A stretch of 64,000 bases of DNA from positions 1,200-65,199 of the forward strand of contig JBHACT010000040.1 of the NCBI GenBank assembly GCA_041854745.1. The letters are read 5' to 3'. Source of the DNA: Candidatus Limimorpha sp. (GTDB taxonomy: Bacteria; Bacteroidota; Bacteroidia; Bacteroidales; F082). Position numbers and translations under genes: made by a program. Below, piece after piece: positions 7,686 through 61,180 of this stretch; position 1 is the stretch's first letter, and the number at the start of each line of letters is the position of its first letter. The notes below the pieces were generated by a model. The model was not told where the DNA came from and ran no database searches. It saw only the letters and a program-made list of their open reading frames with translations.

Positions 7686-7712
7686 TGTAGAGACGCGATT
7701 CATCGCGTCTCA
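7686..7712. repeat. REP-like palindrome, GTAGAGAC family
   Basis: TGTAGAGACGCGAT-tc-ATCGCGTCTCA, 10-bp stem; after the glgB terminator. Confidence 0.8.
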
Positions 7713-7730
7713 AATCCCATTCCGGAAATA

Positions 7731-8237
7731 TTAGAAATTGTAGTACAATCCAAAACCGGGAGCCGAAGTGGCAAAGTTCATGCGGAAACCTTCGTCACCG
7801 TATATGTTGCACTTGTTGTAGCCAATGAAGGCGAAACGGAAGGCAGCCGTCCAATGTTTGGTAGCCATCCAAGCAATGCCGGGTTGCAAGCCGACTCTGT
7901 AACCATTTCCATTCAATGTGGCGAAATCACCTGTCAGATCCATGAACAATGCAAATTTCTCGATGTTGCAGATACTGTAGCGAACATAGGGAGAAAGAGT
8001 CAGGGAAGGGGTGACGGCATCCGAGTTTTCAAGTTTTTCCTTTTGGTACCCATAGTTTACCGCAAGAGCGACAGTCCATTTGGTGTCGGGGATGCTGTAA
8101 CCCACTTCTGGAGCAATGGCAAAACGGGTAACACTGCTGTTGATGGTTGCATTGGTTGAACCGCCCAACCAAACTTGAGCGTTTGCAGTGAAGATGCCTA
8201 CGAATGCAATGACCAAGGTCAAAAACAATTTTTTCAT
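7731..8237 (-). CDS. Small outer-membrane beta-barrel protein
   Basis: Signal peptide ...GIFTANAQ; beta-strand periodicity; C-terminal ...GFGLYYNF. Confidence 0.7.
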   Translation of the reverse strand: MKKLFLTLVIAFVGIFTANAQVWLGGSTNATINSSVTRFAIAPEVGYSIPDTKWTVALAVNYGYQKEKLENSDAVTPSLTLSPYVRYSICNIEKFALFMDLTGDFATLNGNGYRVGLQPGIAWMATKHWTAAFRFAFIGYNKCNIYGDEGFRMNFATSAPGFGLYYNF

Positions 8238-8282
8238 TTTTTGATGATTTAATTAAACAATTTGTGAATTGGATTGATTTCT

Positions 8283-8320
8283 GTTTTGCAGAGACGCGCC
8301 ACGGCGCGTCTCTGCAAAAC
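8283..8320. repeat. REP-like palindrome, GTAGAGAC-family variant (GCAGAGAC)
   Basis: GTTTTGCAGAGACGCGCC-ac-GGCGCGTCTCTGCAAAAC, 18-bp arms; 9 nt past the OadA-like stop. Confidence 0.85.
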
Positions 8321-8329
8321 AAATCCATT

Positions 8330-10096
8330 TTATTTCTCAATGAATGCAATGGTTTCACCCTTACTGACGCGCTGGCCTTGTTCTGCCGTGGCTTCCACGA
8401 TTTTGCCGGGCCAGAGCGCATAGACGGGTTCCATGCCGTGCTCGCTGTTGATGGCGCAAAGCAGGTCGCCTTCCTTATAAACTGTTCCGGGAGCGGGCGA
8501 CACCGATTTGTCGTCAAAGTCAACCTCCCACATCACCCTGCCGCTCACGGGGGCAATAACAGGTTCGGCATTCGGATGACGCAAGGCACGCAGGTCGGGA
8601 ATCTTTACTTCGCCGCCGTTTTTCTGGAACTTCTCCTGCATCTTGGCTTCCAATTCCTGATTGAAACGGCGTTTGGCCTCGCCCGACTTAAACTCGCGGT
8701 ACTGCTTTTCGTGCATGGCGAACTCAAACAGTTCTTCATCATCTTGTCCGCGTTCCCATCCGTTCTCTTCCATCTCCTTGATGAAGCGGGGCAGCTCATC
8801 AGGGTAGTTCTCTTGCGGGTTGCCCGTGAAGAACTCGAAGCCTTTTTTCTTGGCCAACTCCACGATTTCGGGCGACAAAGTGCCGGGCAACTTGCCGGCC
8901 TTGCCGAGAATCATGTTCCACGCGGCAGGGTCGATGCTGTTCTCGTAGCGCGGCTGGTCCATGCTGAGTGAATAAAGGTTCATCAGGGCGACATTTTTGG
9001 TATATTGGCTGAACGGTGTCACCAAAGGCGGGTTGCCGAGTTTGGGCCAGATGTTCTCTACCTCGTCGAAGAGCTCCACAAGGAGTTCGTCCTCGCTGAG
9101 TGCGGGCAGACCTTTCTTCTCGCGGTTCATGTTGATGGCCGCATGGACACCCTTCAGGTCGGCCATCAGCGAGCCAAACATGCCTCCGGGCAGGCCGCAG
9201 CCCACCAGCAGTGAGTTGAGGTAGCGGTTGCGCGGGTCAATCCAATAGCCGAGGAAGTCGTCGATAAAGCTTTGGGTCATGCTGCGGGCGGCCATGTAAG
9301 CCTTCATGTTGATGTCCTTGACGAGGAAACCGGCATCTTTCAGCATGGCAACAACAGAGATGACATCGGGGTGGACAGTGCCCCACGACAGCGGCTCCAT
9401 GGCCACATCGAGGTAGTCGCAGCCCGCCTTGGCCACTTCAAGCATAGAAGCCATCGAGAGGCCCGGCCCCGTGTGACCGTGGTATTGCACCTTGATTTCG
9501 GGGTGCTGGGTCTTGATGTGGTTTACGATTTTGCCCAATGAGGCGGGACGGCCCACACCGGCCATGTCTTTCAGGCAGATTTCCTTGGCACCGGCGGCAA
9601 TCAGCTCATCGGCCATCTTGATATAATACTCCGCCGTATGCACCTGCGAATAGGTGATACTCATGGCGGCTTGCGAGACCATGCCGGCTTCGTTAGCCCA
9701 CTGGATGGAAGGAATGATGTTGCGCACATCGTTCAGTCCGCAGAAAATACGGGTGATGTCAACACCTTGGGCTTTCTTCACCTTGTACATCAGTTGGCGC
9801 ACATCGGCGGGCACGGGGTTCATTCTCAAGGCGTTGAGGGCGCGGTCCAGCATGTGGCACTCAATGCCGCCCTTGTGCAGGGCAGCAGTGAAAGCACGGA
9901 CTGACGGATTCGGGTTCTCGCCATAAAGCAGGTTGACCTGCTCGGCGGCGCCGCCGTTGGTTTCCACGCGGTCGAAGCAGCCCATGTCAATAATCAAGGG
10001 AGCGATTTGCTCCAATTGGTCCTTGCGTGGCACATATTTGCCTGACGACTGCCACATATCGCGGTAAACCAGGCTGAATTTCACTTCTTTTTTCAT
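8330..10096 (-). CDS. Oxaloacetate decarboxylase alpha / pyruvate carboxylase subunit B-like carboxyltransferase
   Basis: Carboxyltransferase TIM-barrel region (RVETNGGA, QYHGHTGPG) followed by a C-terminal biotinyl/lipoyl-like fold that lacks the AMKM lysine. Confidence 0.8.
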   Translation of the reverse strand: MKKEVKFSLVYRDMWQSSGKYVPRKDQLEQIAPLIIDMGCFDRVETNGGAAEQVNLLYGENPNPSVRAFTAALHKGGIECHMLDRALNALRMNPVPADVRQLMYKVKKAQGVDITRIFCGLNDVRNIIPSIQWANEAGMVSQAAMSITYSQVHTAEYYIKMADELIAAGAKEICLKDMAGVGRPASLGKIVNHIKTQHPEIKVQYHGHTGPGLSMASMLEVAKAGCDYLDVAMEPLSWGTVHPDVISVVAMLKDAGFLVKDINMKAYMAARSMTQSFIDDFLGYWIDPRNRYLNSLLVGCGLPGGMFGSLMADLKGVHAAINMNREKKGLPALSEDELLVELFDEVENIWPKLGNPPLVTPFSQYTKNVALMNLYSLSMDQPRYENSIDPAAWNMILGKAGKLPGTLSPEIVELAKKKGFEFFTGNPQENYPDELPRFIKEMEENGWERGQDDEELFEFAMHEKQYREFKSGEAKRRFNQELEAKMQEKFQKNGGEVKIPDLRALRHPNAEPVIAPVSGRVMWEVDFDDKSVSPAPGTVYKEGDLLCAINSEHGMEPVYALWPGKIVEATAEQGQRVSKGETIAFIEK

Positions 10097-10133
10097 TATT
10101 TTGTAGTATTTTAGACGGTGTTTATTGGGACGG

Positions 10134-10141
10134 CAAAGATA
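10134..10141 (-). promoter_or_regulatory. Bacteroidota -7 promoter box (TAnnTTTG)
   Basis: TATCTTTG on minus strand, 37 nt before ATG 10096. Confidence 0.55.
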
Positions 10142-10147
10142 GGCATT

Positions 10148-11326
10148 TTATCTGAAATCTTTTCCTTCCTGCATAGCAAAGATTTCTTTTTGATGTTCGA
10201 TTTCAAGGAGCAATTGTTTTTTGTCGGGGAGATAAGTCAGATATTTTGCCGCAAACAGTTGCTGATGGTCTTTCAAAATGCTGTATCTGGCTAAGTCCTT
10301 GCTGGTTTCGGCGCAGAGCAATAGTCCGATGGTCGGATTATCGCCTTCGGTGCATTTGAGTTCGTCGTACATCCGAATATACATATCCATTTGCCCAATG
10401 TCTTGATGTGTTATCTCGTTTGTTTTCAGGTCGATGAGAAGGAAACATTTCAAGATGTAGTTGTAGAAAACCAAATCAACATAATAGTCTTTCAGGTCGG
10501 TGCGGATAAGTTGTTGGCGGGCTACAAAAGCATAGCCTTTGCCCGATTCCATAATGAACTTTTGCAAAGGGTCAATGATGGAGGCTTCCAATTTGGTTTC
10601 GCTGAACGCCATATTTTGGGAAAGTCCAAGGAACTCGGCAATGACAGGATTCTTTATGAAAGCGTATTTGTCTTTCTGATAATCCGCAGTCAGTTTTTTC
10701 ATTTCATCCACCACCTCGTGTTTCATATCATCGGGCGTTTGCAGCGGACGATAATAATATTGGGAGTTGATGTTGCGGTCAAGAGTACGATAACTCCATT
10801 GTTGTGTTGCCGCTTCGTGCATATACCAATGACGGGCTTGTTCGTCATCAATGCGCATAAGGCGTTCATAATGAGTCCAACTCAATTGGGCAGGCAGCGC
10901 CTGCCCTTTTTGGATGTTCGATTGGGCAGACGGTGTCTGCCCTTTTTCGGATGTAGCAGACGGTGTCTGCTGAATCATCTTTTTCAATTGGGCAGGCACT
11001 GCCTGCCCAATCTCTAAGTCGCTGAAAGTCAGGTAAAATTTTCTGAAACTTTTGATGTTCGTCTCCGAATATCCCTTGCCAAATTCAGCCGTCAGCACTT
11101 CCGATGCCAATTTGATGATATATGCGCCGTATTCAGCGCGGTTTTTGCCTTGTTGCTCTTGTTCTACAATGCGCCAGCCCAAAAGCCAGTTGCTCGTCAC
11201 TTGCATCAGGTTGGCGGTACGATAGGCTTGGGTCTTCGCCGAAGCGACGATTTGTTTGATGTCCTTAACAAATCCATTGTCTTCCGTGCGGACTTGTTGT
11301 TCATTATTGTTTGTCCTTAGTTCCAT
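10148..11326 (-). CDS. DUF1016/YhcG-family PD-(D/E)XK nuclease-like protein
   Basis: WLLGWRIVEQEQQGKNRAEYG, LSWTHYERLM, C-terminal DLVFYNYILKCFLLIDLK core; contains an internal 12-aa repeat block. Confidence 0.8.
   Translation of the reverse strand: MELRTNNNEQQVRTEDNGFVKDIKQIVASAKTQAYRTANLMQVTSNWLLGWRIVEQEQQGKNRAEYGAYIIKLASEVLTAEFGKGYSETNIKSFRKFYLTFSDLEIGQAVPAQLKKMIQQTPSATSEKGQTPSAQSNIQKGQALPAQLSWTHYERLMRIDDEQARHWYMHEAATQQWSYRTLDRNINSQYYYRPLQTPDDMKHEVVDEMKKLTADYQKDKYAFIKNPVIAEFLGLSQNMAFSETKLEASIIDPLQKFIMESGKGYAFVARQQLIRTDLKDYYVDLVFYNYILKCFLLIDLKTNEITHQDIGQMDMYIRMYDELKCTEGDNPTIGLLLCAETSKDLARYSILKDHQQLFAAKYLTYLPDKKQLLLEIEHQKEIFAMQEGKDFR
10888..11008. repeat. Four palindromic units (~36-nt period) inside the DUF1016 coding sequence
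   Basis: GGGCAGGC-agc-GCCTGCCC (10888), GGGCAGAC-ggt-GTCTGCCC (10924), GCAGAC-ggt-GTCTGC (10956), GGGCAGGC-act-GCCTGCCC (10990). Confidence 0.85.
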
Positions 11327-11330
11327 AGCG

Positions 11331-11338
11331 CAAAATTA
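11331..11338 (-). promoter_or_regulatory. Bacteroidota -7 promoter box (TAnnTTTG)
   Basis: TAATTTTG on minus strand, 4 nt before ATG 11326. Confidence 0.5.
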
Positions 11339-11399
11339 CATTATTTCCAGCGAAAAAGAAAAAAATCTACTCGTTTTGTTTGGCAATCCAAAAAAGTTG

Positions 11400-11407
11400 T
11401 ATATTTG
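11400..11407 (+). promoter_or_regulatory. Bacteroidota -7 promoter box (TAnnTTTG), orphan
   Basis: TATATTTG; no ORF follows for about 290 nt, precedes the candidate structured RNA. Confidence 0.4.
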
Positions 11408-11412
11408 TGGCG

Positions 11413-11625
11413 TTCTTATGGCGGAATTGTCCGCCAACATAAATGGAACACGAAGCGTTATGCTCGTCTTGTTTGTAGAAACGTGAGAAATTTCTAAAAG
11501 GTAGCAAGAGGGTGTAATAGTTCACGCGTATAGGCGTGGGCTGTTTACATTTTTCTCTACCAAAGGTAATTCTCACGACCTCTACAAAAGAAAGGTATAT
11601 CAGTGCCACGCTTCTTTTGTTCAAA
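11413..11625 (+). ncRNA. Candidate structured RNA or 5' leader (rod-like, unclassified)
   Basis: Follows the orphan -7 box; 5' hairpin GGCGGA-attg-TCCGCC (11420-11435); nested helices 11446-11458/11608-11622, 11475-11489/11570-11585, 11500-11504/11557-11561, 11513-11517/11545-11549, 11523-11527/11534-11538. Confidence 0.3.
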
Positions 11626-11693
11626 GATTATCCTTTGAGGTGCTGGGAGGGAAAACTAAAGGTTGCGCCCGACACGGATTTAGGGATTACATC

Positions 11694-12248
11694 ATGAGAA
11701 TAATTTTAAAAACCAAAAACACAGTACTCATCGCTTTGGCGGTATTCCTTGGAATTTCCTTTGCTTCATGTACAAAAGAGAATGGAGGAGGAAACAATGA
11801 CAGCACAGGTATTGAGGTTCGAATAATAAACAGCGCCAATGGCGGTTATTTGGTAGAAATGGTTTGGGAAGAAAAAGTTCTGTTTGTGCATTATCAAGGC
11901 AACTATTATGGCGAAGGAAGTGCTGATCTAGGTATCGACGATTCCAACAATTTCTATTTAAGACAGAATTCGAATTACATAACATCAGGCCACCCCAAGG
12001 CCAATGCAACTATTGCATCTATCGGAAGCGTTAGTGGTCTGAGTAAAATAAAACAAATTCCCCACTCTGGATGGACAGATCGAGTAGCCGTTAATCCTGG
12101 AAATGGATATGTCATTAGATTTGAGGGGAGTTGTGAATCAGGTACATTTTGCCACTATGCTCGAGTATATGTAGAAGAATGGATAGAATCAACTTCAGGT
12201 GGAATTATAGGAGCAATTGTTAGATATGAAGGAAATTGGAAACCATAA
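11694..12248 (+). CDS. Hypothetical lipoprotein (AT-rich gene)
   Basis: Lipoprotein signal ...LGISFASC from ATG 11694; no catalytic motif recognised. Confidence 0.6.
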   Translation: MRIILKTKNTVLIALAVFLGISFASCTKENGGGNNDSTGIEVRIINSANGGYLVEMVWEEKVLFVHYQGNYYGEGSADLGIDDSNNFYLRQNSNYITSGHPKANATIASIGSVSGLSKIKQIPHSGWTDRVAVNPGNGYVIRFEGSCESGTFCHYARVYVEEWIESTSGGIIGAIVRYEGNWKP

Positions 12249-12319
12249 GTAGATTGTATGGGGCAATCCGAAAGCCTTGAATATCAGCATTTGCAAAGCG
12301 AAACGAAGAAAAGGTAGAA

Positions 12320-12349
12320 AGAGGGCGCGGCTGGATGGCTGCGCCCTCT
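12320..12349. terminator. GC-rich hairpin (possible terminator)
   Basis: AGAGGGCGC-12 nt-GCGCCCTCT, T-rich on both flanks; lies between convergent genes. Confidence 0.4.
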
Positions 12350-12419
12350 TCGCTTCTCTATGTGAAATTTTTGACAAAAATGTCAATTATTTGAAATAGG
12401 AATTGGCTGAAGAAAAACG

Positions 12420-12456
12420 AAGGCTGTGCTGGTTTGCAGCACAGCCTTGTGTTTTT
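12420..12456. terminator. Bidirectional intrinsic terminator downstream of hutU
   Basis: 12-bp stem AAGGCTGTGCTG/CAGCACAGCCTT, loop GTTTG, then GTGTTTTT; A-rich on the other side. Confidence 0.7.
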
Positions 12457-12463
12457 AGACCCA

Positions 12464-12489
12464 TAGAGACGTAGCGCGCTACGTCTCTA
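12464..12489. repeat. REP-like palindrome, GTAGAGAC family
   Basis: TAGAGACGTAGCG|CGCTACGTCTCTA, perfect 26-nt palindrome; 17 nt past the hutU stop. Confidence 0.85.
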
Positions 12490-12506
12490 CAAATGTCCAA
12501 TTCAAA

Positions 12507-14507
12507 TTAGAATAGGTTATCCAAAATTTTGTCTTCCACCAAATTCGGCAAAGTAACCTTCAGTTTGGGCTCCGCTTCCATAGCACGTTTGATGGCGAAG
12601 GTGGCGCCTTCATTACGGGCCCAGTTGCGGCGGGCGATGCCGTTGTTCACGTCCCAGTGGAGCATGCAGTGGAGCCTTCTGTCAGCGTCGGCAGTGCCGT
12701 CAAGTACCATGCCGAAGCCGCCGTTGATGACTTCGCCCCAACCTACGCCGCCGCCGTTGTGGATGCTCACCCAGGTGGCGCCACGGAAACCATCGCCGAT
12801 GACGTTCTGCACGGCCATGTCAGCAGTGAATGAAGAGCCATCATAAATGTTGGAGGTCTCACGGAACGGGCTGTCGGTGCCAGAGACGTCGTGATGGTCA
12901 CGGCCAAGGACGACGGGACCGCTCAAGCGGCCATCGGCAATGGCCTTGTTGAACTCGGCGGCAATCTTGGTACGGCCTTCGCAGTCGGCGTAGAGGATAC
13001 GCGCCTGCGATCCGACGACGAGGTGGTTCTCTTGTGCACCGCGAATCCACTGTATGTTGTCGTGCATTTGTTGGCGGATTTCCTCAGGCGCGGTCTTGGC
13101 GATGGTCTCCAACACATGGCAGGCGAGGTCGTCGGTCATGGCAAGGTCTTCAGGCTTGCCCGAAGCACACACCCAACGGAAGGGGCCGAAGCCGTAGTCG
13201 AAGCACATTGGGCCCATGATGTCCTGTACGTATGAAGGATAGCGGAAGGTGCCGTCAGCCTTCATGATGTCGGCACCAGCGCGGTTGCTTTGCAGCAGGA
13301 AGGCATTGCCGTAGTCGAAGAAGTACATGCCTTTTTCTGTCAGCTTGTTGACGGCAGCCACATGGCGGCGCAACGAAGCCTGCACTTTCTCTTTGAACAG
13401 ATCGGGGTTCTCGGCCATCATGGTCTTCGACTCTTCAAACGACAGCCCGACAGGATAATAACCGCCTGCCCAAGGGTTGTGGAGCGAGGTTTGGTCGGAT
13501 CCGAGGTCGACATGGATATCGTGCTTGGCAGCATATTCCCAAAGGTCCACCACATTGCCTTGATAGGCGTAGCTTCGGGCTTCCTTTTTGGAGATACTCT
13601 CGTTGACATGCTTGAAGAGCACCTCAATGTTGTCGTGCACCTCATCGACCCAGCCTTGTGCAAAGCGTTTTTGCGTGGCGGCAGGGTTGATTTCGGCGGT
13701 GATACTCACCACACCGGCGATGTTGCCGGCCTTGGGTTGGGCACCGCTCATGCCGCCCAAACCGGCGGTGATGAACAGCTTGCCTGCCGTGCCGCCACCC
13801 TGTTTGCGGGCTGCGTTAAGCACGGTGATAGTGGTGCCATGGACGATGCCTTGAGGCCCAATATACATATAGGAGCCGGCGGTCATTTGGCCGTATTGCG
13901 TCACGCCCAAGGCATTGTAACGCTCCCAGTCGTCAGGTTCGGAGTAGTTCGGAATCATCATGCCGTTGGTGACCACCACGCGTGGGGCGTCCTTATGCGA
14001 TGGGAAGAGTCCCATAGGATGACCGCTGTACATGGCGAGGGTCTGGTCTTCCTCCATGTTGGCGAGGTACTGCATTACGAGACGGTATTGGGCCCAGTTC
14101 TGGAAGATGGCACCATTGCCGCCGTAGACGATGAGCTCGTGGGGGTGCTGTGCCACGGCATGGTCGAGGTTGTTCTGAATCATCAGCATGATGGCTGCGG
14201 CCTGCTTGCACTTGGCGGGATATTCCTCAATTGGGCGGGCATACATCTTGTAGGACGGACGGAAACGGTACATGTAGATACGGCCGTATTCCTCCAGTTC
14301 CTTGGCAAATTCGGGAGCCAAAGTGGGGTGGAACTTGGCGGGGAAGTAACGCAAAGCATTACGGATGGCCAGTTTCTTTTCTTCTTTCGTCAAAATGTCC
14401 TTGCGTTTGGGCGCATGGTTGACATTGAGGTCATATTCCTTCACTTCTGGCAGCTCGTTGGGAATGCCGGCGAGAATCTCTTTTTGGAAATCGTTGAGTG
14501 CTTTCAT
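12507..14507 (-). CDS. hutU: Urocanate hydratase
   Basis: Full-length urocanase pattern incl. ITAGLGGMSGAQPKAG NAD-binding stretch; ATG 14507 lies downstream of the -7 box, unlike the track start 14555. Confidence 0.9.
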   Translation of the reverse strand: MKALNDFQKEILAGIPNELPEVKEYDLNVNHAPKRKDILTKEEKKLAIRNALRYFPAKFHPTLAPEFAKELEEYGRIYMYRFRPSYKMYARPIEEYPAKCKQAAAIMLMIQNNLDHAVAQHPHELIVYGGNGAIFQNWAQYRLVMQYLANMEEDQTLAMYSGHPMGLFPSHKDAPRVVVTNGMMIPNYSEPDDWERYNALGVTQYGQMTAGSYMYIGPQGIVHGTTITVLNAARKQGGGTAGKLFITAGLGGMSGAQPKAGNIAGVVSITAEINPAATQKRFAQGWVDEVHDNIEVLFKHVNESISKKEARSYAYQGNVVDLWEYAAKHDIHVDLGSDQTSLHNPWAGGYYPVGLSFEESKTMMAENPDLFKEKVQASLRRHVAAVNKLTEKGMYFFDYGNAFLLQSNRAGADIMKADGTFRYPSYVQDIMGPMCFDYGFGPFRWVCASGKPEDLAMTDDLACHVLETIAKTAPEEIRQQMHDNIQWIRGAQENHLVVGSQARILYADCEGRTKIAAEFNKAIADGRLSGPVVLGRDHHDVSGTDSPFRETSNIYDGSSFTADMAVQNVIGDGFRGATWVSIHNGGGVGWGEVINGGFGMVLDGTADADRRLHCMLHWDVNNGIARRNWARNEGATFAIKRAMEAEPKLKVTLPNLVEDKILDNLF

Positions 14508-14552
14508 TTTATGGTGTTTTTGTTGTTGTTTCAAATCATTTCTTAGGATTTG

Positions 14553-14560
14553 CAAAGGTA
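14553..14560 (-). promoter_or_regulatory. Bacteroidota -7 promoter box (TAnnTTTG)
   Basis: TACCTTTG on minus strand, 45 nt before hutU ATG 14507. Confidence 0.55.
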
Positions 14561-14751
14561 ATAATAATATGGTGATGTTTATATTGTTTTTCGCTTTTTG
14601 GGTGAAAAAACGATAAAAAGTTTCTTTTGTATTTCACCGCCTGCATGTCATCCACTACCCCTACGGCGCTTGGCGGTAGGTGGATTCAATCCCCCGCAGA
14701 AAACAACCCAGAAAAATCTTTGTTTTTTTTGCCGCTACCAGCGATTATTGC

Positions 14752-20386: not shown

Positions 20387-21967
20387 ATGGAGAAATTATT
20401 GCTATTAGGCGATGAGGCCATTGCACAGGGCTTCATCGATGCTGGCGGCTCGGCCGTTAACAGCTATCCGGGCACACCTTCAACCCAAATCACAGAGTAT
20501 GTCATCAATTCAAAACAGGCCAAGGAGCTTGGCGTGAAAGCCAATTGGTGCGCCAACGAGAAAACGGCTCTCGAAGCTTCCATCGGCGTGGCCTATGCCG
20601 GCAAGCGTGCCATGAGCTGCATGAAGCATGTGGGGCTCAATGTGTGTGGCGACCCCTTTATGAACGCTGCCATCATCGGCACCAAGGGCCTTCTCATCGT
20701 GGTGGCTGACGACCCGAGCATGTTCTCGTCGCAGGACGAGCAGGACAGCCGCTTCTACGGTCACTGGGCCATGATTCCCATGCTGGAGCCTTCCAACCAA
20801 CAAGAAGCCTACGACATGGTGCACTACGGCTTCGAGTTGAGTGAGAAGCTCGGCACGCCGGTGCTCTATCGTATCCCGACCCGTTTGGCACACAGCCGTG
20901 CAGGTGTGGTGCGCAAGCCCGTCCGTCCGCAGAACGAGCTCACTGAGCCTGCCGACGCCAAGTCGTTCGTGCTGCTGCCCGCCAATGCCAAGCGTCTCTA
21001 CCGCGACCTCATCGACAAGCAGCCCGCTTTCACTGAGGCTTCGGAGACATCTGGCTTCAACAAATACATTGACGGCCCGAAAAAGAACATCGGTATCATC
21101 ACCACGGGTATCGCCTACAACTACCTGATGGAGAATTTCCCCGACGGCCAATGCCCCTATCCCGTTGTCAAGGTTACGCAATACCCGTTGCCTTACGATA
21201 TGATTAACAAGCTGTACGACGAGTGCAATGAAATTTTGGTACTCGAAGACGGTCAACCTTTCGTGGAAGAGAAGATCAAGGGTTTCCTCGCCAAGGGCAA
21301 GAATGTCATGGGCCGTTTGGATGAGACCATCCGCCGCGATGGTGAGCTGAATTCCGAGAAGGTGGCCAAGGCCCTCGGCATGGATGTGCCTACGATGTTC
21401 AGGGTGCCGGAGGTGGTTACCAACCGTCCGCCCGCGCTTTGCCAAGGCTGCCCGCATACCGATAGCTACAATGCTCTGAATGCAGTCATGGAAAAATATA
21501 AAGGAGGCAAGGTGTTTGGCGACATCGGCTGCTACACATTGGGCTTCAACATGGGTGCCATCAACACGACAGTGTGCATGGGTGCCTCCATCACCATGGC
21601 CAAGGGCGCCAGTGAGGTGGGTGTTTTCCCGAGCGTGGCTGTCATCGGAGATGGAACCTTCGGCCACAGCGGTATGACGGGCCTGTTGGACTGTGTCAAC
21701 GAAAAGGCCAATGTTGTGGTTATGATTCTCGACAACGACATCACCGCCATGACGGGTGGCCAGCCTTCATCGGCCAACAACAAGATCCGTCGCATTTGCG
21801 AAGGCCTTGGCGTTGAACCCGAGCATATCCGCGACATCGTTCCGTTGCCCAAAAACCTCGAAGAGAATATCAAGATCATCGAGGAAGAGGTCAACTACAA
21901 CGGCGTGTCGGTTATCATCCCGCACCGCATCTGCATCGTGGAATTGAAGAAACACATGAAAAAATAA
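20387..21967 (+). CDS. iorA: Indolepyruvate:ferredoxin oxidoreductase subunit alpha
   Basis: LLGDEAIAQG, SYPGTPST, CQGCPH, GDGTFGHSG (TPP-binding) motifs; followed by iorB. Confidence 0.85.
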   Translation: MEKLLLLGDEAIAQGFIDAGGSAVNSYPGTPSTQITEYVINSKQAKELGVKANWCANEKTALEASIGVAYAGKRAMSCMKHVGLNVCGDPFMNAAIIGTKGLLIVVADDPSMFSSQDEQDSRFYGHWAMIPMLEPSNQQEAYDMVHYGFELSEKLGTPVLYRIPTRLAHSRAGVVRKPVRPQNELTEPADAKSFVLLPANAKRLYRDLIDKQPAFTEASETSGFNKYIDGPKKNIGIITTGIAYNYLMENFPDGQCPYPVVKVTQYPLPYDMINKLYDECNEILVLEDGQPFVEEKIKGFLAKGKNVMGRLDETIRRDGELNSEKVAKALGMDVPTMFRVPEVVTNRPPALCQGCPHTDSYNALNAVMEKYKGGKVFGDIGCYTLGFNMGAINTTVCMGASITMAKGASEVGVFPSVAVIGDGTFGHSGMTGLLDCVNEKANVVVMILDNDITAMTGGQPSSANNKIRRICEGLGVEPEHIRDIVPLPKNLEENIKIIEEEVNYNGVSVIIPHRICIVELKKHMKK

Positions 21968-21977: not shown

Positions 21978-22042
21978 TGTAGAGACACGGCGTGCCGCGT
22001 CTCGATATCGCGTCTTGAGACGCGGCACGCCGTGTCTCTACA
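21978..22042. repeat. Composite REP: two inverted GTAGAGAC units, 26-bp perfect arms
   Basis: TGTAGAGACACGGCGTGCCGCGTCTC-13 nt-GAGACGCGGCACGCCGTGTCTCTACA between iorA and iorB. Confidence 0.9.
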
Positions 22043-22663: not shown

Positions 22664-22740
22664 GTAGAGACGCGATTCATCGCGTCTCTCATTACATTCA
22701 TCGCGTCTCTCATCACAATTCATTGTGTTTCTCATCGCGA
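22664..22740. repeat. REP-like palindrome plus tandem solo right arms
   Basis: TGTAGAGACGCGATTCATCGCGTCTCT matches the 7686 copy across its first 26 nt; followed by ATTCATCGCGTCTCTCAT again and a degenerate third copy. Confidence 0.8.
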
Positions 22741-22770: not shown

Positions 22771-22812
22771 AAAAATGCCCGATTGAAAAAATCCCAATCG
22801 GGCATTTTTTTT
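22771..22812. terminator. Bidirectional intrinsic terminator between iorB and cstA
   Basis: AAAAATGCCCGATTG-loop-CAATCGGGCATTTTTTTT. Confidence 0.75.
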
Positions 22813-27091: not shown

Positions 27092-28372
27092 ATGGAAAAT
27101 CAGGAAAACAATAATTTAAGCGAACTCGACCAACTGAAAGCGCAGTACGAAACGCTGAAACAAAAGTTTGACGAACAGGAAATCGTCAATGAACGGATGA
27201 TGAAGTCCGTTGTCCAAAACAGCACCGAGTATTTTACGAAATACAGGAAGTCGCTACTGATAATCTATCCCATTCTTGCCGTTTTGGGATTCGTTTTTCT
27301 CGCACATTATGTGGGTGTGTGGGCGCTTGGTTTTTACTTCTTTCTTTTTATGGCAATTGCAACCGTTGTGGAACTTTGGCTGACACGCAATGTGCGTAAG
27401 CAGGTGGTGGAAAATTCCGATTTACTCACACTTTCCAAAAATATGAAGAAACTGAAAAATAGTTATGCCATTTATGTCGTATTGTTTTTGGTCGTTTTTG
27501 CGGTTTTCATATTGTTTGCAACAATTATGCGTCAATTTTCCATCTATCAGTCTGTAACGAATGAAATGATTATTAGTACGATGTTTATTATGTGCGTGGC
27601 AGGTATGGGGTTGCTGATTGCGGCGGTTTTGATTTATTATTACTTTGTGAGCCATTGCAACAATGTGCTTAGGCAAATTGATGCCCTTACCGAAAATCAT
27701 ATCGTTAGGAATAATCGTTCGTTTTGGCTCATCTTGGGTGCGGTGTCGTTGTTGTGTGTCATTGGTGCGTTTGGGCTTTACAAAGCGTATGACCGTGTTG
27801 AGTATGTGCGCTCCGATACCGATTTGTCGAGTGAAGGCAAGTTGGCGATTTGGGAGATTTATGCCGATACAACTGTTTTCGAAAAAGATGTTCCCGCCTT
27901 TATGGAACAATGGCAACAAAATGATTCTCTTGTTCTTATGACAGGAAAGCAAGGGCAAGTCTTTATGGAAATGGAAGGTCTAAAAGTTATTTCAAGGAAA
28001 GAGGAAGAAAAGCAACAAGTAAAACTCTATACGCTGAGAAAGACTACACCCGAAGGTCCTGTCATCAGTTCGGCGGTACTGGGTGGAAAGCCGATGGTGG
28101 AAGAAGTGAGTCACGGTCATTTCAGGAACAGAGCCTCTGAGAATTTAGGTGTGTTTGTGTATCTGACACCTGATGCCGCCCAACTTTGGTCGGATTTCAC
28201 CAGAAAGGGAGCAACGGAAAAAACAAAGTGTCGTGCAGCCTTGTGCCTCGATGGAGTAGTTTATCAGGAATGGATGATTACGGGAGAGATTTCCTTGGGG
28301 ATGTTTTTCGTAATGAACAACTGGACAAAAGACGAAGTGAAAGCCTTCTGCGAACGTATAATCAGGCAGTAG
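27092..28372 (+). CDS. Membrane protein, putative anti-sigma factor partner
   Basis: Starts 12 nt after the sigma gene; coiled N-terminus, about 5 TM helices, soluble C-terminal domain; stop TAG lies inside a REP hairpin. Confidence 0.5.
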   Translation: MENQENNNLSELDQLKAQYETLKQKFDEQEIVNERMMKSVVQNSTEYFTKYRKSLLIIYPILAVLGFVFLAHYVGVWALGFYFFLFMAIATVVELWLTRNVRKQVVENSDLLTLSKNMKKLKNSYAIYVVLFLVVFAVFILFATIMRQFSIYQSVTNEMIISTMFIMCVAGMGLLIAAVLIYYYFVSHCNNVLRQIDALTENHIVRNNRSFWLILGAVSLLCVIGAFGLYKAYDRVEYVRSDTDLSSEGKLAIWEIYADTTVFEKDVPAFMEQWQQNDSLVLMTGKQGQVFMEMEGLKVISRKEEEKQQVKLYTLRKTTPEGPVISSAVLGGKPMVEEVSHGHFRNRASENLGVFVYLTPDAAQLWSDFTRKGATEKTKCRAALCLDGVVYQEWMITGEISLGMFFVMNNWTKDEVKAFCERIIRQ

Positions 28373-28441
28373 AGACGGTGCACGCACCGTCTCAAATTCG
28401 GGTTGGTTTATTGTTGGAGACGGAGCACGCTCCGTCTCTAC
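28369..28441. repeat. Composite REP: two different self-complementary units in inverted orientation
   Basis: GTAGAGACGGTGC-ac-GCACCGTCTC ... 23 nt ... GAGACGGAGC-ac-GCTCCGTCTCTAC; the first unit contains the TAG stop of the upstream gene. Confidence 0.85.
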
Positions 28442-55350: not shown

Positions 55351-55355
55351 ATATC

Positions 55356-56102: not shown

Positions 56103-56104
56103 TT

Positions 56105-56932
56105 ATGGCCAACCAACTTATCATAGCCGCCAACCAAAGCCGCGAAATCATTGAGTATGACGATGACGCACACTTGTCGGCAGAGCCGAGGGCTTCAGAA
56201 ATCGTCCTTAACGAGAATGCCAGCCTTGAGTTGTATGTGCTTCAAAATGTGAGCAACGAGGCTTCCATGCAGCGGGAGTTCAAGATCAGGCAGCTGGCCA
56301 ACAGTCGGCTGAAAATTGTGTTCATCACCTTCAACAGTGGCCATATCCGCAATACTTTTCATGTGGATTTGGACGGCGAAGGTGCTGATAGTCAGGTACA
56401 CGGACTCTATCTCATAGACAAGACCCAACGTGTAGAGAACTACCTGAAAGTGAACCACAATGTACCTAATTGCACCAGCAACGAGAAGTTCAAAGGCATC
56501 ATCGACGACTCGGCCTCTGCGGTGTTCAACGGTCATGTTTATGTGGCTCCGAATGCCCAAAAAACCAATGCCCAACAAAACAACAGTAACATCATCCTTA
56601 CCCCAACGGCCAAAATCAACAGCCAGCCGTTTTTGGAGATTTATGCCGATGACGTGAAATGCGCTCACGGCACTACCACGGGCCAACTTGACCAAGAGGC
56701 CATGTTCTATATGCGACAGCGAGGCATCAGCAAGGCCAATGCACGGATTCTGCTGATGTATGCCTTTGCCGCAGAGGTGAGCAACCACATCGGTAATGAG
56801 ATGCTGCACGAACATATCGACGACATGATTAAGCGCCGCTTGCGGGGCGAATTGTCGAGTTGCGAAACCTGCGTTTTGCGCTGTAGCCACCCGAAGGAAT
56901 ACAATTTTGACATTGATTATTCGAAAATATGA
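56105..56932 (+). CDS. sufD: Fe-S cluster assembly protein SufD (short form)
   Basis: SufB/D beta-helix core (...LEIYADDVKCAHGTTTGQLD...FYMRQRGI...); ATG 56105. Confidence 0.8.
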   Translation: MANQLIIAANQSREIIEYDDDAHLSAEPRASEIVLNENASLELYVLQNVSNEASMQREFKIRQLANSRLKIVFITFNSGHIRNTFHVDLDGEGADSQVHGLYLIDKTQRVENYLKVNHNVPNCTSNEKFKGIIDDSASAVFNGHVYVAPNAQKTNAQQNNSNIILTPTAKINSQPFLEIYADDVKCAHGTTTGQLDQEAMFYMRQRGISKANARILLMYAFAAEVSNHIGNEMLHEHIDDMIKRRLRGELSSCETCVLRCSHPKEYNFDIDYSKI

Positions 56933-56990
56933 CTATGGCTAATGGCCACTTCCTCAATATGTTGAAGTGGCCATAGTCAAGGATGTTTTT
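56930..56990 (+). terminator. Strong hairpin plus T-run between sufD and sufS (attenuator/partial terminator?)
   Basis: TGACTAT..GGCCACTTC-11 nt-GAAGTGGCC-ATAGTCA nested stems starting at the sufD stop codon, then GGATGTTTTT. Confidence 0.45.
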
Positions 56991-57014
56991 AGAAAACGGT
57001 GAAGTTTAACTACG

Positions 57015-58232
57015 ATGTTAAGTATTAAAGAAATAAGAAATCAATTTCCTGCCCTTGACCAACAGGTCTATGGCAAACCCTTGGTTTATCTCGACAATGC
57101 AGCCACCACGCAGAAGCCATTGTGCGTTATTGAGCGTGAGCGTGACTATTACCTGAACGAGAACTGTAATATCCACCGTGGGGTGCATTACCTGAGTCAG
57201 AAGGCTACTGAGGCCTACGAAAAAGCCCGTCAGACCGTGGCGCATTTTGTCAATGCCAAGGAGCCTCGTGAAATTGTCTTCACCCGAGGCACTACGGAGT
57301 CATTGAACCTACTTGCCACTGCCTTTGAGCATCATTGTATCGAAACAGGCGACAAGGTGCTGGTCACGGCTATGGAGCACCATTCCAATCTCGTGCCTTG
57401 GCAACAGATGATACAACGGCACCGGGGGCAGTTGCTCGTTGTGCCGATGGACGATAAGGGGGTGTTGGACATGGAACAATATGAAAAGCTGCTGAAGGAA
57501 AGCCCGAAGGTGGTGTCCATCGCGCACATTTCCAATGTGTTGGGTACTATTAATCCCGTGAAGGAAATGGTAGCGATGGCACATCAGTATGACATACCTG
57601 TAGTAATTGACGGTGCCCAGTCCATTGCCCATCATTCTATTGATGTTCAAGACCTTGACTGCGATTTCTTTGTCTTCTCTGGCCACAAGATGTATGCTCC
57701 GATGGGTATTGGCGGCTTGTACGGCAAGGCGGAGTGGTTAGAGAAGTTGCCTCCCTATCAGTTTGGCGGCGAAATGGTTGACACGGTGAGTTTCGAGAAA
57801 ACCACTTTCAATGTGTTACCTTATAAGTTCGAGGCGGGAACGCCCAATGTGGGGGCAGCTTTGGGCTTGGAGGCCGCTGTTCAATTCCTGCAAAGCATTG
57901 ACAGAAAAGCAGTTGAAGAGCATGAGGCGCAACTGTTGCAGTCTGCCATAGGGCAACTTTCGGATATTGAAGGTATACGGTTCGTTGGAGAGGCGGAACA
58001 GTGCAGTGGTCTGGTGTCGTTTGTCATTGACGGCATTCACCCTTACGACCTTGGCACCATCATCGACAAGATGGGCGTGGCGGTGCGTACGGGACACCAT
58101 TGCGCTGAGCCGGTGATGACACGTTTCGGAATCCCTGGTACGGTGCGGGCTTCGTTTGCCTTGTATAATACGATGGAAGAGGTGGGCACTTTTGTCAATG
58201 CGGTGAAGAAGGCTGCGACGATGCTGCGTTAG
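57015..58232 (+). CDS. sufS: Cysteine desulfurase SufS
   Basis: HHSNLVPWQ, PLP-Lys FSGHKMYAPMG, catalytic Cys RTGHHCAEP. Confidence 0.9.
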   Translation: MLSIKEIRNQFPALDQQVYGKPLVYLDNAATTQKPLCVIERERDYYLNENCNIHRGVHYLSQKATEAYEKARQTVAHFVNAKEPREIVFTRGTTESLNLLATAFEHHCIETGDKVLVTAMEHHSNLVPWQQMIQRHRGQLLVVPMDDKGVLDMEQYEKLLKESPKVVSIAHISNVLGTINPVKEMVAMAHQYDIPVVIDGAQSIAHHSIDVQDLDCDFFVFSGHKMYAPMGIGGLYGKAEWLEKLPPYQFGGEMVDTVSFEKTTFNVLPYKFEAGTPNVGAALGLEAAVQFLQSIDRKAVEEHEAQLLQSAIGQLSDIEGIRFVGEAEQCSGLVSFVIDGIHPYDLGTIIDKMGVAVRTGHHCAEPVMTRFGIPGTVRASFALYNTMEEVGTFVNAVKKAATMLR

Positions 58233-58746
58233 GCGTTTCTATAATTTCGGCCTCTGTTGACGGCTCTTCTGCTTTCTTGTCTTCTTTCTCAACAGTTTCC
58301 AATGTGATTTTTCCGTCCTTCAGCTTGATTTTCTTTTTCAATCTGATGGGCGCAATAATCAGCACAAGCAACGCCTCAAGGGCATATTTCGTCATGGGGA
58401 TAACCCCAGTCGTTACGACTTGGAAAACGATGAGTAGGATGGAGGCAACCACAAAGATGGCTTTGCCGTGGATTTTCTTTCTGAATATTTGTATCAAACT
58501 GAATACCAGCAATATAAGTAGTAGTAATTGGAGAATCGGGATGAGAAGCTCTGATTGGTCTTGCTGGAAGGTTGTTATTTTGTAATAGTAGTGGTCAATG
58601 TAATATTGACTGAAAACAATTGTGATGATGGCGAAGATGAGCAGCAGCCCGTAATAGGTGATGGCGAAACTGGCCGCCAACTTCATCAGTAGTGTCATCT
58701 CGGGCTTTAGGTTAAATATCTTTCCTTCGCGCTGTTCCATGGTCAT
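58195..58746 (-). CDS. Hypothetical membrane protein
   Basis: Four predicted TM helices, Lys/Glu-rich tail; 3' end overlaps sufS 3' end by 38 nt. Confidence 0.5.
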   Translation of the reverse strand: MTMEQREGKIFNLKPEMTLLMKLAASFAITYYGLLLIFAIITIVFSQYYIDHYYYKITTFQQDQSELLIPILQLLLLILLVFSLIQIFRKKIHGKAIFVVASILLIVFQVVTTGVIPMTKYALEALLVLIIAPIRLKKKIKLKDGKITLETVEKEDKKAEEPSTEAEIIETPNAASSQPSSPH

Positions 58747-59243
58747 TCGGGGTTTTGTGTTTGTTGCAACATCTCTATGCGTTTGAAATGAAGGTAATAC
58801 AACAAGATAAAGATGGCGGTGAGCATCAGGTCGGAGAAAAATGGAGATGGTTTTTGCAGGGGGTAGACATACATGGATTTGTCAATCAACATGCAGATTT
58901 GGGCGATGGCATAGATATGGAAACCGCGCTTGTCGCCTCTGAACATCCTAATGACTCCCATCAACGATGCAATGAACAACACCATCAGAATGAGATAGAA
59001 TTTGGAATCGATTTGGTTGACGAAATACATCGCCTCGCTCATGGCCTTGGCGAAATCTCCACCTAAAATGGAAAACGGTTGCATCATCTCCTCGAATTGC
59101 CCATTGTTGAACAATTCGGTTATTTGTGGTTTCATTATTAGCGAAATCATTGAACTGAAGATGTTCCAACAGGCGTTTATGAATGACAATACAAGGAGGA
59201 AGGTCATTCCTACGGGGCGTTTTTTCTGATTGGTGGTTTCCAT
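58743..59243 (-). CDS. Hypothetical membrane protein
   Basis: Four predicted TM helices; ATG 59243 preferred because the 59282 extension is a translated repeat unit; ATGA overlap with downstream gene. Confidence 0.5.
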   Translation of the reverse strand: METTNQKKRPVGMTFLLVLSFINACWNIFSSMISLIMKPQITELFNNGQFEEMMQPFSILGGDFAKAMSEAMYFVNQIDSKFYLILMVLFIASLMGVIRMFRGDKRGFHIYAIAQICMLIDKSMYVYPLQKPSPFFSDLMLTAIFILLYYLHFKRIEMLQQTQNPE

Positions 59244-59256
59244 TCTATTTTTTTTT

Positions 59257-59533
59257 GTATGGCTGTCGTACCACGGCAGCATTTATTTGTATGGCTGTCG
59301 TACCGCGGCAGCCTATTATATTTGTAGGGCCATCACACCACGGCAGCATTTATTTGTAGGGCTGTCACACCGTGGCGGCGTTTATTTGTAGGGCTGTCGT
59401 ACCACGGCAGCATTTATTTGTAGGGCCATCACACCACGGCGGCGTTTATTTGTAGGGCTGTCACACCGTGGCAGCCTTACCTGTGGCAGCCGTGATACGA
59501 CATGCCGGCTGCCGTAATACGACAGTCCTACAG
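59257..59533. repeat. Tandem array of 7 direct (32-35 bp) plus 2 inverted TGTAGGGCTGTCG...CGGCAGC hairpin units
   Basis: Units start at 59257, 59289, 59324, 59356, 59388, 59420, 59452; inverted copies at about 59487-59507 and 59509-59533; no unique spacers. Confidence 0.9.
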
Positions 59534-59537
59534 TGAA

Positions 59538-61049
59538 TTATTCATTTTTCAAATCATCAAATGCCAGCGGATAGTCCTTCACGAACTGTACGCTCTTGGC
59601 AATTTCGGTGTACATCACCTTGTCGGTACGCACAAATTCCACCTGTTTGCGGTATTCGGCAACAAACTCTTCGATGATGGGTGAAGACTTCAACGGACGG
59701 CGGAATTCAAGTGCTTGAGTGGCGTTGAACAGCTCGATGGCGAGGACGCGCTCTATGTTCTCTGCCACGCGCAAAGCCTTCGTTGCAGCGTTGGCTCCCA
59801 TACTGACATGGTCTTCCTGTCCTTGCGACGACTCAATGCTGTCGACTGAAGCAGGTGTGCAAAGTTGTTTGCTCTGGCTGACAATGCTGGCGGCGGCATA
59901 TTGCGGAATCATGAAGCCGGAGTTGAGGCCGGGCTCGGCGACGAGGAAGGAAGGCAGATTGCGTTTGCCACCAATGAGCTGATAAATACGGCGTTCGCTG
60001 ATGTTGCCCAACTCAGCCATGGCGATGGCTAAGAAATCTAAGGTGATGGCCAAAGGCTGACCGTGGAAGTTGCCGGCGGAGATGACCAGGTCTTCATCGG
60101 GGAAGATGGTTGGGTTGTCGGTGACGGCGTTGATTTCCTTGCTGAACACAGAGGCCACATAGTCGATGGCATCTTTCGAGGCACCATGTACTTGGGGCAT
60201 GCAACGGAAGGAGTATGGGTCTTGAACATGTTTCTTTTCCCTGACAATCAGCTCGCTGCCCTTGGTGAACTCGCGCACGCGTTTTGCTGTGACGATTTGT
60301 CCGTTGTGGTGGCGAACCTGATGTACTTGGTCGAAGAAAGGCTCAATACGGCCGTCGAAGGCTTCCAAGGAAACGGTGCCGATGAGGTCGGCGAGATAGC
60401 TGAGGCGGAAGGCCTTCAGCAACACATAGGTGCCATAGCTGTTCATAAACTGCGTGCCGTTGAGCAGGGCCAGACCTTCTTTCGACTGTAAGGTGATGGG
60501 CTGCCAACCGAACTTGTCAAGGACCTGTTGCGACGGGACGATTTTGCCCTCATAATGCACTTCGCCCAAGCCGAGCAGCGGCAGCATGAGGTTGGCCAAA
60601 GGAGCCAAATCGCCGGAGGCACCGAGCGAGCCTTGGTTGTAGACCACGGGCAGCACATCGTTGTTGAAGAAGTCGATGAGGCGTTGGACAGTCACGACCT
60701 GCACGCCGCTATTGCCGTAGCTGAGGCTCTGCACTTTCAATAACAGCATGAGGCGGATGATTTCCTCGGGCACCATCTCGCCCGTGCCGCAAGCGTGCGA
60801 CATGACGAGGTTTTTCTGCAAGGTGCTCAGGTCTTCTTTCGAGATGCTATGGTCGCAGAGGGAGCCGAAGCCGGTGGTTACGCCGTAGATGGGCTTCTCT
60901 TGGTTCTCCATCTTCTTGTCGAGGTAGTCGCGGCATTTCTGAATGCGTTGGATGGCGTCGTCCGATAAGGCCAGTTTGTAACCTTTGGTGATTATTTCAT
61001 TTACCTGTTTGAAGGTCAATTCTTTGGATGAGATTTTGTGGATTTCCAT
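59538..61049 (-). CDS. hutH: Histidine ammonia-lyase
   Basis: MIO-forming GASGDLAPL; selectivity position reads MSH (Ser-His, HAL-type). Confidence 0.9.
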   Translation of the reverse strand: MEIHKISSKELTFKQVNEIITKGYKLALSDDAIQRIQKCRDYLDKKMENQEKPIYGVTTGFGSLCDHSISKEDLSTLQKNLVMSHACGTGEMVPEEIIRLMLLLKVQSLSYGNSGVQVVTVQRLIDFFNNDVLPVVYNQGSLGASGDLAPLANLMLPLLGLGEVHYEGKIVPSQQVLDKFGWQPITLQSKEGLALLNGTQFMNSYGTYVLLKAFRLSYLADLIGTVSLEAFDGRIEPFFDQVHQVRHHNGQIVTAKRVREFTKGSELIVREKKHVQDPYSFRCMPQVHGASKDAIDYVASVFSKEINAVTDNPTIFPDEDLVISAGNFHGQPLAITLDFLAIAMAELGNISERRIYQLIGGKRNLPSFLVAEPGLNSGFMIPQYAAASIVSQSKQLCTPASVDSIESSQGQEDHVSMGANAATKALRVAENIERVLAIELFNATQALEFRRPLKSSPIIEEFVAEYRKQVEFVRTDKVMYTEIAKSVQFVKDYPLAFDDLKNE

Positions 61050-61180
61050 ATTGTTGATTGTTTAATCGTTTAATCGTTGTGTAGAGATGTGGCGTGCCGC
61101 GTCTCGTGAATATTATATTGTTGATTGTTTGATTGTTTAATTGTTGTGTAGAGCCGTGGCACGCCGCGGCTCTACATGGT
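61048..61180. repeat. 67-bp tandem duplication, each copy carrying a REP hairpin
   Basis: ATATTGTTGATTGTTT(A/G)AT(C/T)GTTTAAT(C/T)GTTGTGTAGAG... twice; hairpins 61084-61105 and 61148-61175. Confidence 0.85.

Follow-up and report, generated by a model that had tools for sequence, protein, structure and literature searches.

In a window of 64,000 nucleotides from Candidatus Limimorpha sp. (Bacteroidales; positions 1,200 to 65,199 of contig JBHACT010000040.1, assembly GCA_041854745.1), we found a family of short hairpins that are, with a probability of about 80%, repetitive extragenic palindromes (REPs) tagged with GTAG. They would belong to the GTAGAGAC...GTCTC(TAC) class, the cognate of one clade (subclass 2.4) of REP-associated tyrosine transposases (RAYT, or TnpA_REP). 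This family is already described as a class, and the present host lineage is an addition to it. A preliminary description of this DNA, made from the sequence alone, was aware of no formal description for this lineage; the class itself is contained in Quentin et al. 2018 (PMC6006769), including Bacteroidetes, with GTAGAGAC...GTCTCTAC in Table S1. Our own full-text literature search for GTAGAGAC returned primer noise only. The window carries the Bacteroidota hallmarks Por_Secre_tail and CHU_C.

The hairpin family is real. The sequence GTAGAGAC occurs eight times on the two strands of the window, compared to 0.55 copies expected from dinucleotide-preserving shuffles of the window (n=100), none of which reached eight. 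Seven of these eight matches fall in hairpins; the remaining one, at 20994 on the minus strand within iorA, is an isolated arm without a hairpin and was discarded as a chance occurrence. The window has 15 perfect hairpins whose stems are 9 bp or longer, and eight of them belong to the GTAG/GAGAC...GTCTC family. A covariance model, which the preliminary description had proposed as a check, was trained on 74 unrelated copies and run over the window with filters off; it recovered 10 units with E-values from 7.6e-10 to 1.4e-5, and nothing else in the window scored below E=2. Rfam at gathering thresholds gave no match in the whole window. The family had been claimed at eight loci and only between genes. 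The claim is confirmed, with the 10 units occupying seven sites, all of them intergenic, and the inner-stem sequences quoted at the time are correct.

A unit consists of a GTAG foot, the last G of which opens a 10-bp stem of the form GAGAC-NNNNN/NNNNN-GTCTC, closed by a 2-nt loop. Among the 10 units, sizes are 25-28 nt, stems 9-10 bp and loops 2 nt, and GTAG stands at the hairpin foot in nine; unit 8288 has GCAG on both sides. We distinguish the following arrangements: (i) single-footed units (7687, 22664 and 61081); (ii) nearly or fully double-footed units, GTAG...CTAC (12463-12490 and 61148-61175, and likewise 8282-8321 with GCAG); and (iii) inverted pairs with GTAG outside (21978-22042 and 28369-28441). 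The individual features are:

7687-7711, plus strand: single REP unit GTAGAGACGCGATTCATCGCGTCTC, footed with GTAG at the left side alone; the stem has 10 bp and the loop 2 nt.
8282-8321, no strand: palindromic variant whose stem measures 19 bp (inverted repeat I2, 100% complementary).
12463-12490 (model match 12466-12490), minus strand: nearly double-footed REP unit GTAGAGACGTAGCGCGCTACGTCTC; the plus strand reads ATAGAGAC.
21978-22042: inverted pair of units 21979-22003 (plus strand) and 22017-22041 (minus strand), with a 13-nt spacer and GTAG outside.
22664-22688, plus strand: REP unit GTAGAGACGCGATTCATCGCGTCTC, scoring 38.8 bits with the covariance model.
28369-28441: inverted pair of units 28369-28393 (plus strand, GTAGAGACGGTGCACGCACCGTCTC) and 28417-28441 (minus strand, GTAGAGACGGAGCGTGCTCCGTCTC), with a 23-nt spacer and GTAG outside.
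61081-61105, plus strand: REP unit GTAGAGATGTGGCGTGCCGCGTCTC; its stem contains two T-G wobbles, as read on the GTAG strand.
61148-61175, no strand: double-foot REP GTAGAGCCGTGGCACGCCGCGGCTCTAC, with the clamp altered on both sides (GAGCC/GGCTC; inverted repeat I16).

Unit 7687-7711 is a perfect hairpin (covariance model 38.8 bits, E=7.6e-10) between a glgB-like gene (stop codon at 7651) and the convergent open reading frame (ORF) 7731-8237 on the minus strand, 35 nt from the stop codon of the former and 19 nt from the latter. The palindrome 8282-8321 follows the stop codon of an OadA-like gene (8330-10096, minus strand) at a distance of 8 nt; the core of the palindrome, 8288-8315, GCAGAGACGCGCC-AC-GGCGCGTCTCTGC, has the feet GCAG/CTGC in place of GTAG/CTAC and scores 29.5-29.9 bits on both strands. 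Unit 12463-12490 (38.4 bits on the minus strand, 29.6 bits on the plus strand) is 16 nt downstream of the hutU stop codon (12507). The pair 21978-22042 sits in the spacer between iorA and iorB, 11 nt past the iorA stop codon, and forms a perfect 26-bp inverted repeat (I1), with one A-C mismatch within each unit (29.5 bits each). Unit 22664 is found 13 nt past the iorB stop codon, upstream of a conserved terminator (22771-22809), and its right arm is re-duplicated in tandem at 22675-22736 (Tandem Repeats Finder, TRF; period 21, 2.9 copies). In the pair 28369-28441 (37.0 and 38.6 bits), the inner stems differ by one compensated pair (T-A versus A-T), and the left GTAG provides, with its TAG (28370-28372), the stop codon of ORF 27092-28372, the putative anti-sigma gene of the preliminary description, for which no Pfam match was obtained. 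Unit 61081 (26.3 bits, E=7e-6) has the hutH start codon (61049) on one side and the hisS stop codon (61180) on the other, both genes being on the minus strand; an 8-nt tandem repeat stands in front of the unit at 61060-61078 (TRF). Unit 61148-61175 (25.4 bits on the plus strand, 25.3 bits on the minus strand) is 4 nt downstream of the hisS stop codon and likewise has an 8-nt tandem repeat in front, at 61117-61145; units 61081 and 61148 together represent a direct duplication of ~64 nt that comprises flank plus REP. The 8-mers of these tandem repeats are GTTTAATC and ATTGTTTG.

For the analysis of covariation, IMG/VR was scanned for GTAGAGACG-N10-CGTCTC. The important property of this pattern is that the inner 10 nt were free, so that there was no selection for pairing. 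The scan produced at least 120 stretches, with 232 matches among those listed. At least three of the four inner pairs were Watson-Crick in 207 of the 232 listed matches, compared to ~5% under chance; double-footed copies, ending in TAC, make up 162 of the 232, and the listed contigs with this REP span about 30-64% GC. Among 74 distinct inner sequences, we counted 124 double-sided changes versus 39.1±8.2 in shuffles (0 of 500 shuffles reached the observed value). The fraction of paired cells was 93.2%, compared to 79.4% after shuffling and 23-61% when the partners were slid, and the covariation score was 0.357 versus 0.098 in shuffles. The covariation means that the constraint is on pairing in the upper stem, and on sequence in the foot and the basal stem. 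The covariation expected in the preliminary description is therefore strong. Its statement that both sides of the stem always change together is nearly correct for the window, the exceptions being the single A-C mismatches in units 21979-22003 and 22017-22041 and the two T-G wobbles in unit 61081.

The link to RAYT comes from other genomes. A tblastn search of plasmids with E. coli RayT (a query 100% identical to the annotated rayT) found a "transposase" on pFA2 of Fulvitalea axinellae, a Bacteroidota plasmid (L124 in our numbering of loci, 2249-2851). This protein has the motifs NHIH, WQ and YIRTNP; inverted pairs of GTAGAGAC REPs lie on either side of its gene, and the TAG of one GTAG is its stop codon. 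It has 5638 homologues at E<=1e-5, several of them named "REP element-mobilizing transposase RayT" by the Joint Genome Institute (JGI). RAYTs of the Fulvitalea type match NCBIfam REP_Tyr_transpos (E=4e-18), and their only match in PDB is 4ER8, TnpArep. A metagenome scan with an alignment of 40 homologues gave 80 loci. In 55 of these 80, GTAGAGAC hairpins are located within 400 nt of the RAYT gene or inside it, and ~15 others have the near variants GTAGGGAC, GTAGATAC, GTAGAAAC or GTAGAGGC. The REP is inside the gene in 47 of the 80, and the matched region is free of stop codons in 43 of these 47; the six in-gene cases that were printed read in frame as VETxHAxSL-like peptides (e.g., VETRHALSL). 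A RAYT of Tannerella, also a member of Bacteroidales, carries GTAGAGACAACGCATGCGTTGTCTCTAC in frame. A Bernardetia plasmid RAYT goes with a different REP, GTAGGCTTTAGCCTTCG; not every Bacteroidota RAYT has the GTAGAGAC class, thus the pairing of REP and RAYT is clade-specific. In other genomes, this REP class is associated with this RAYT clade, and the organism studied here presumably encodes, or once encoded, a RAYT of this kind. The 120 IMG/VR loci scanned yielded no RAYT by motif or phmmer search.

Some details of these RAYT loci were recorded in passing. In the genes of L210, L213 and L218, repetitive peptide runs flank the in-frame REP, e.g., NDIPDTNDIPDT...VETRHALSL...REIPEIREIPEIR. The RAYT gene of Tannerella sp. 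(L286, MAG GCA_030528505.1, 1-3597; MAG, metagenome-assembled genome) shares 4 nt with the end of a DUF4917 gene, and the latter comes after a gene for type I restriction specificity (Methylase_S). Such surroundings are unusual for a RAYT, and this RAYT gene is not flanked by REPs. A Chlorohelix match was rejected as an example of a RAYT with REPs, its flanks being unrelated tandem repeats.

Orthologous sites were compared in relatives at 89-95%. The closest IorA proteins (94-95% identity) are encoded in MAGs of uncultured rumen/gut Bacteroidales, one of them a Candidatus Limimorpha sp. The closest relatives have REPs of the GAGAC type, as do a few distant ones, and most of the compared genomes lack them; close relatives have 1-5 units per 12-22 kb. 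The spacer between iorA and iorB has the following content:

Window: inverted dimer.
L158: one double-foot REP with another inner stem (GTAGAGACGTAGCGCGCTACGTCTCTAC).
L135: a further REP variant (GTAGAGACGTTTCATGAAACGTCTGTAC).
L157: decayed REP copy.
L128, L130-L133, L136: bare spacer of 20-30 nt.
L126, L127, L129: unrelated repeats.

The repeats of the last three genomes, found ~10-160 nt beyond the end of the iorA match, are a long hairpin of CAGCYATCAGC-like units (L126), a hairpin of the CCATAGGCCATAAGCC type (L127) and a tandem array of the 8-mers GTGGACAA/TTAGACAA (L129). In this comparison, the iorA-iorB spacer is a hot spot for several kinds of repeats. In the window as in L158 and L128, the site after iorB has an identical REP; L126 has a compensated variant there, GAGACGCAA-TGC-TTGCGTCTC, and L157 a copy without its GTAG. 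The relatives do not keep synteny around the sites 12464 and 28369. A Logan contig of the same organism breaks off within the REP dimer, as dispersed repeats cause. Taken together, the orthologous sites show turnover at a hot spot plus long persistence elsewhere, both of which are typical of REPs, and the turnover suggests mobility. The preliminary description had read the hairpins as REP/BIME-like (BIME, bacterial interspersed mosaic element), structure-constrained, possibly mobile and linked to RAYTs. This reading gains support on each count: from the covariation and the inverted pairs, which resemble BIMEs and REPINs (REP doublets forming hairpins); from orthologous sites that are filled, empty, decayed or compensated; and from one RAYT clade whose genes, in other genomes, have precisely this kind of REP at their flanks or inserted in frame.

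The distance to the nearest stop codon is 0-35 nt at all units except 61081, which is 74 nt from the hisS stop codon, and five units are located within 15 nt of a stop codon. The placement given previously, within ~35 nt downstream of a stop codon, thus stands with this one exception. The names given to the flanking genes (glgB-like, OadA-like, hutU, iorA/iorB, hisS and hutH) stand as well, with the correction that hutH has unit 61081 upstream of it and not downstream. A T run follows none of the units, whose 3' flanks are AAATCC, GATATC, TCATTA, AAATTC, GTGAAT and so on. Separate terminators, each made of a hairpin plus a T run, adjoin REPs at ~7655-7683, 12420-12448 (both strands) and 22771-22809. 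The first of these lies between glgB and the REP and is a plus-strand match in a terminator consensus scan; the last is kept in related genomes. The sole unit matched in the same scan is 8282-8321, on the strand opposite to the flanking genes. Because the units are without a T run and canonical terminators sit separately alongside, the REP units are not the terminators; they are located beside them, and the terminator function suggested previously as an option falls away. At three sites (hutU, iorB and ORF 7731-8237) the order is stop codon, REP, terminator; therefore, REPs are expected in the transcribed 3' untranslated region (UTR). One REP dimer is internal to the iorA-iorB operon.

A mechanism can be proposed as follows. 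On single-stranded DNA (ssDNA), a unit would fold into a 10-bp hairpin with GTAG at the 5' foot. A monomeric HUH/Y1 nuclease would read GTAG and the invariant basal stem (the GAGAC/GTCTC clamp), and the upper stem would need only to pair. Such recognition by RAYT, for which the analogy is E. coli TnpA_REP (PDB 4ER8), would account for a conserved clamp beside an inner stem that varies with compensation. By cutting and rejoining DNA, the nuclease would cause units to spread, duplicate or be replaced, mostly as inverted pairs, and copies would survive where they are harmless, i.e., in the short stretch from the stop codon to the intrinsic terminator or the next promoter. The REPs would be transcribed into the 3' UTR, and a secondary influence on the stability of the mRNA 3' end or on translation termination is conceivable.

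Several observations weigh against a RAYT-mobilized family. The copies are unevenly distributed over the window, with none from 28.4 to 61.0 kb. Comparison of filled and empty orthologous sites revealed no clean insertion boundaries and no target duplications, and the persistence of the same REP after iorB in several species agrees with long-term vertical inheritance no less well than with recent transposition. With 65 bits against the curated NCBIfam cut-off of 80, the RAYT homologues are divergent from the characterized enzyme. As the preliminary description had noted, no RAYT is found in the 64-kb window (motif search, or phmmer with E. coli, Fulvitalea and Bernardetia queries); none is found either in two Logan contigs of the same organism (L001-L002) or, by phmmer, in ~1.2 Mb around iorA of 80 related genomes. 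These REPs might be orphans or relics, a RAYT-derived family that lost its enzyme, or retains it in an inactive state, and is inherited vertically under selection on the transcribed hairpin; such a hairpin could shield 3' UTRs from exonucleases, or tune translation termination within ~15 nt of the stop codon. The absence of RAYT from all examined sequence of this lineage, the REP kept after iorB in species with IorA 94-95% identical, together with its compensated variant in L126, the transcribed position at three sites and the five units close to stop codons are all in line with this explanation, which we nevertheless consider unlikely. The absence of RAYT carries little weight, as a small part of each genome of the lineage is covered. 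The exact-copy inverted pair (21978-22042), the 64-nt duplication at 61.1 kb and the differing variants at one orthologous site point to recent activity. Furthermore, unit 61081 has its wobbles on the GTAG strand; in the hisS/hutH transcript they turn into C-A mismatches, which disfavors RNA-level selection for this copy. We hold it to be about equally improbable that the GTAGAGAC REPs of this lineage are long-lived, RAYT-independent 3' UTR modules, kept in place from stop codon to terminator by selection on the folded transcript, and that phages use the hairpins and ferry the class between phyla. If this were true, the selection would account for persistence at orthologous sites with compensated stems, and phage transfer for the invariant foot in contigs of 30-64% GC.

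The remaining explanations have far lower probabilities than a family mobilized by RAYT. Ordinary intrinsic (Rho-independent) terminators that became alike by convergence are suggested by GC-rich hairpins close after stop codons and by the terminator-like flag of 8282-8321; however, the transcribed strand shows no T run after any unit, the match at 8282 is on the wrong strand for its neighbors, canonical terminators stand apart from the REPs, and a dimer is found inside the iorA-iorB operon. In addition, convergence cannot yield an invariant GTAGAGAC foot over contigs of 30-64% GC, or a link to one clade of transposases, and we regard this explanation as very improbable. Slightly less credible still are remnants of another mobile element, such as a MITE (miniature inverted-repeat transposable element) or IS200/IS605 ends, and sites of a regulator or a restriction enzyme. 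The units are palindromic and repeated, IS200/IS605 ends too have subterminal hairpins, and the stem contains CGTCTC, which we take to be the BsmBI/Esp3I site. Yet the units of 25-28 nt have no internal sequence, no separate terminal inverted repeats and no target duplications, and neither tnpA nor tnpB is found nearby. A MITE (50-500 bp, with terminal inverted repeats and target-site duplications) was rejected on the grounds that the whole unit is a hairpin of 25-28 nt without duplicated flanks. The neighboring genes are functionally unrelated, making a shared operator unlikely, and the inner-stem covariation reflects a constraint on pairing, not a sequence-specific duplex.

Other repeats in the window deserve mention. 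A second, different GTAG hairpin family forms a cluster at 59257-59531, starting 6 nt downstream of the hutH stop codon. It is composed of seven head-to-tail units of 32 nt, TTTATTT-GTAGG-GCTGTCGT-ACC-ACGGCAGC-A, the first two of which read GTATGG; the variant GCTGTCAC/GTGGCAGC still pairs, and an inverted minus-strand unit, GTAGGACTGTCGTATTACGGCAGC, comes next. There is no other copy of this family in the window, and the cluster is probably a REP cluster of the GTAGGG class. At 10885-10972, three similar terminator-like hairpins (GGGCAGRC-NNN-GYCTGCCC, then TTTTT) are located in a 36-nt tandem repeat within the reading frame of a mechanically listed ORF, 10148-11326 (minus strand).

Double-foot hairpins of the GTAGAGACG...CGTCTCTAC type were also seen, among the IMG/VR matches listed, in true phage genomes: L016 (3972-3999 and 10978-11005), L050 (7789 and 8350), L007 and L041. 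Proteins of the phage contigs match tail sheath (E=3e-191), major head protein, large terminase and a Mu-like transposase, and some of the hairpins are 6-10 nt downstream of head and tail-sheath genes.

The principle behind this REP family is not new. An uncultured rumen/gut lineage of Bacteroidales joins the hosts of a REP class that was so far documented mainly in a supplementary table, and the class gains examples of covariation without ascertainment bias, of turnover at orthologous sites, and of placement between stop codon and terminator. REPs of this kind break metagenome assemblies, as in one contig of the same organism, and can be mistaken for terminators or small RNAs in annotation.

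Quentin et al. 2018 (BMC Genomics 19:475, PMC6006769) tied "double foot" REPs, with GT[AG]G at the 5' side and C[TC]AC at the 3' side, to subclass 2.4 of TnpA_REP. They reported that REP insertions within tnpA_REP genes of this subclass keep the reading frame, mentioned short repeats in these genes, and noted that deletion within an inverted dimer can give rise to a double foot. Their Table S1 lists, beside tnpA_REP genes, GTAGAGACGCACGGCCGTGCGTCTCTAC of Chloroflexus aggregans (CaggA01), GTAGAGACAAGGCATGCCTTGTCTCTAC of Aequorivita (AesuA01) and GTAGAGACAGGGCATTGCCCTGTCTCTAC of Emticicia (EmolA01), and the units of the window match these rows (GTAGAGAC[G/A]...GTCTCTAC). Foot and basal stem are identical, the sizes agree (25-28 nt), and pairing is kept in a variable upper stem; members of the class are reported from Bacteroidetes (Aequorivita, Emticicia) and Chloroflexi; double-foot and inverted-dimer forms both occur in the window, and short tandem repeats are adjacent. 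The differences are that the host is an uncultured rumen/gut Bacteroidales lineage unsampled in that paper, that no RAYT gene is present in the window, and that the units are mostly single-footed or in inverted pairs, with a full double foot at 61148-61175 and a nearly full one at 12463-12490.

The REP/BIME system of E. coli with RayT (YafM, TnpA_REP; 4ER8) shares GTAG 5' of an imperfect palindrome, inverted pairs, extragenic location after stop codons, and an HUH/Y1 enzyme homologous to the clade linked to the REP class of the window. However, the stem sequence in the window is another one, and the hairpin is shorter and bulge-free, with a loop of 2-4 nt; the linked clade has 32% identity to E. 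coli RayT over approximately half of the length, falls below the NCBIfam equivalog cut-off and often contains an in-frame REP. The ends of IS200/IS605 elements, i.e., ssDNA subterminal hairpins with an adjacent guide tetranucleotide, are recognized by a related HUH/Y1 enzyme, TnpA_IS200 (PMC6006769). The units of the window likewise combine an ssDNA hairpin with an adjoining tetranucleotide, but they are not termini of a gene-carrying element, and there is no tnpA/tnpB between or beside them.

Finally, Di Nocera et al. 2013 (BMC Genomics 14:522, PMC3733652) defined GTAG-tagged REPs, including the arrangement in inverted dimers, the complementary subfamilies and the location after coding regions. 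The family described here agrees with these REPs, and with the REPINs of Pseudomonas, in the terminal GTAG, the stem of 6-13 bp, the complementary stem subfamilies, the predominance of inverted dimers with GTAG outside, and the location past coding regions, between genes that are unidirectional or convergent. That survey recorded GTAG REPs in Proteobacteria, Cyanobacteria, Chloroflexi and the PVC (Planctomycetes-Verrucomicrobia-Chlamydiae) group, and in Bacteroidetes found only CGTC-tagged repeats and no GTAG REPs, whereas the family of the window is in Bacteroidetes.

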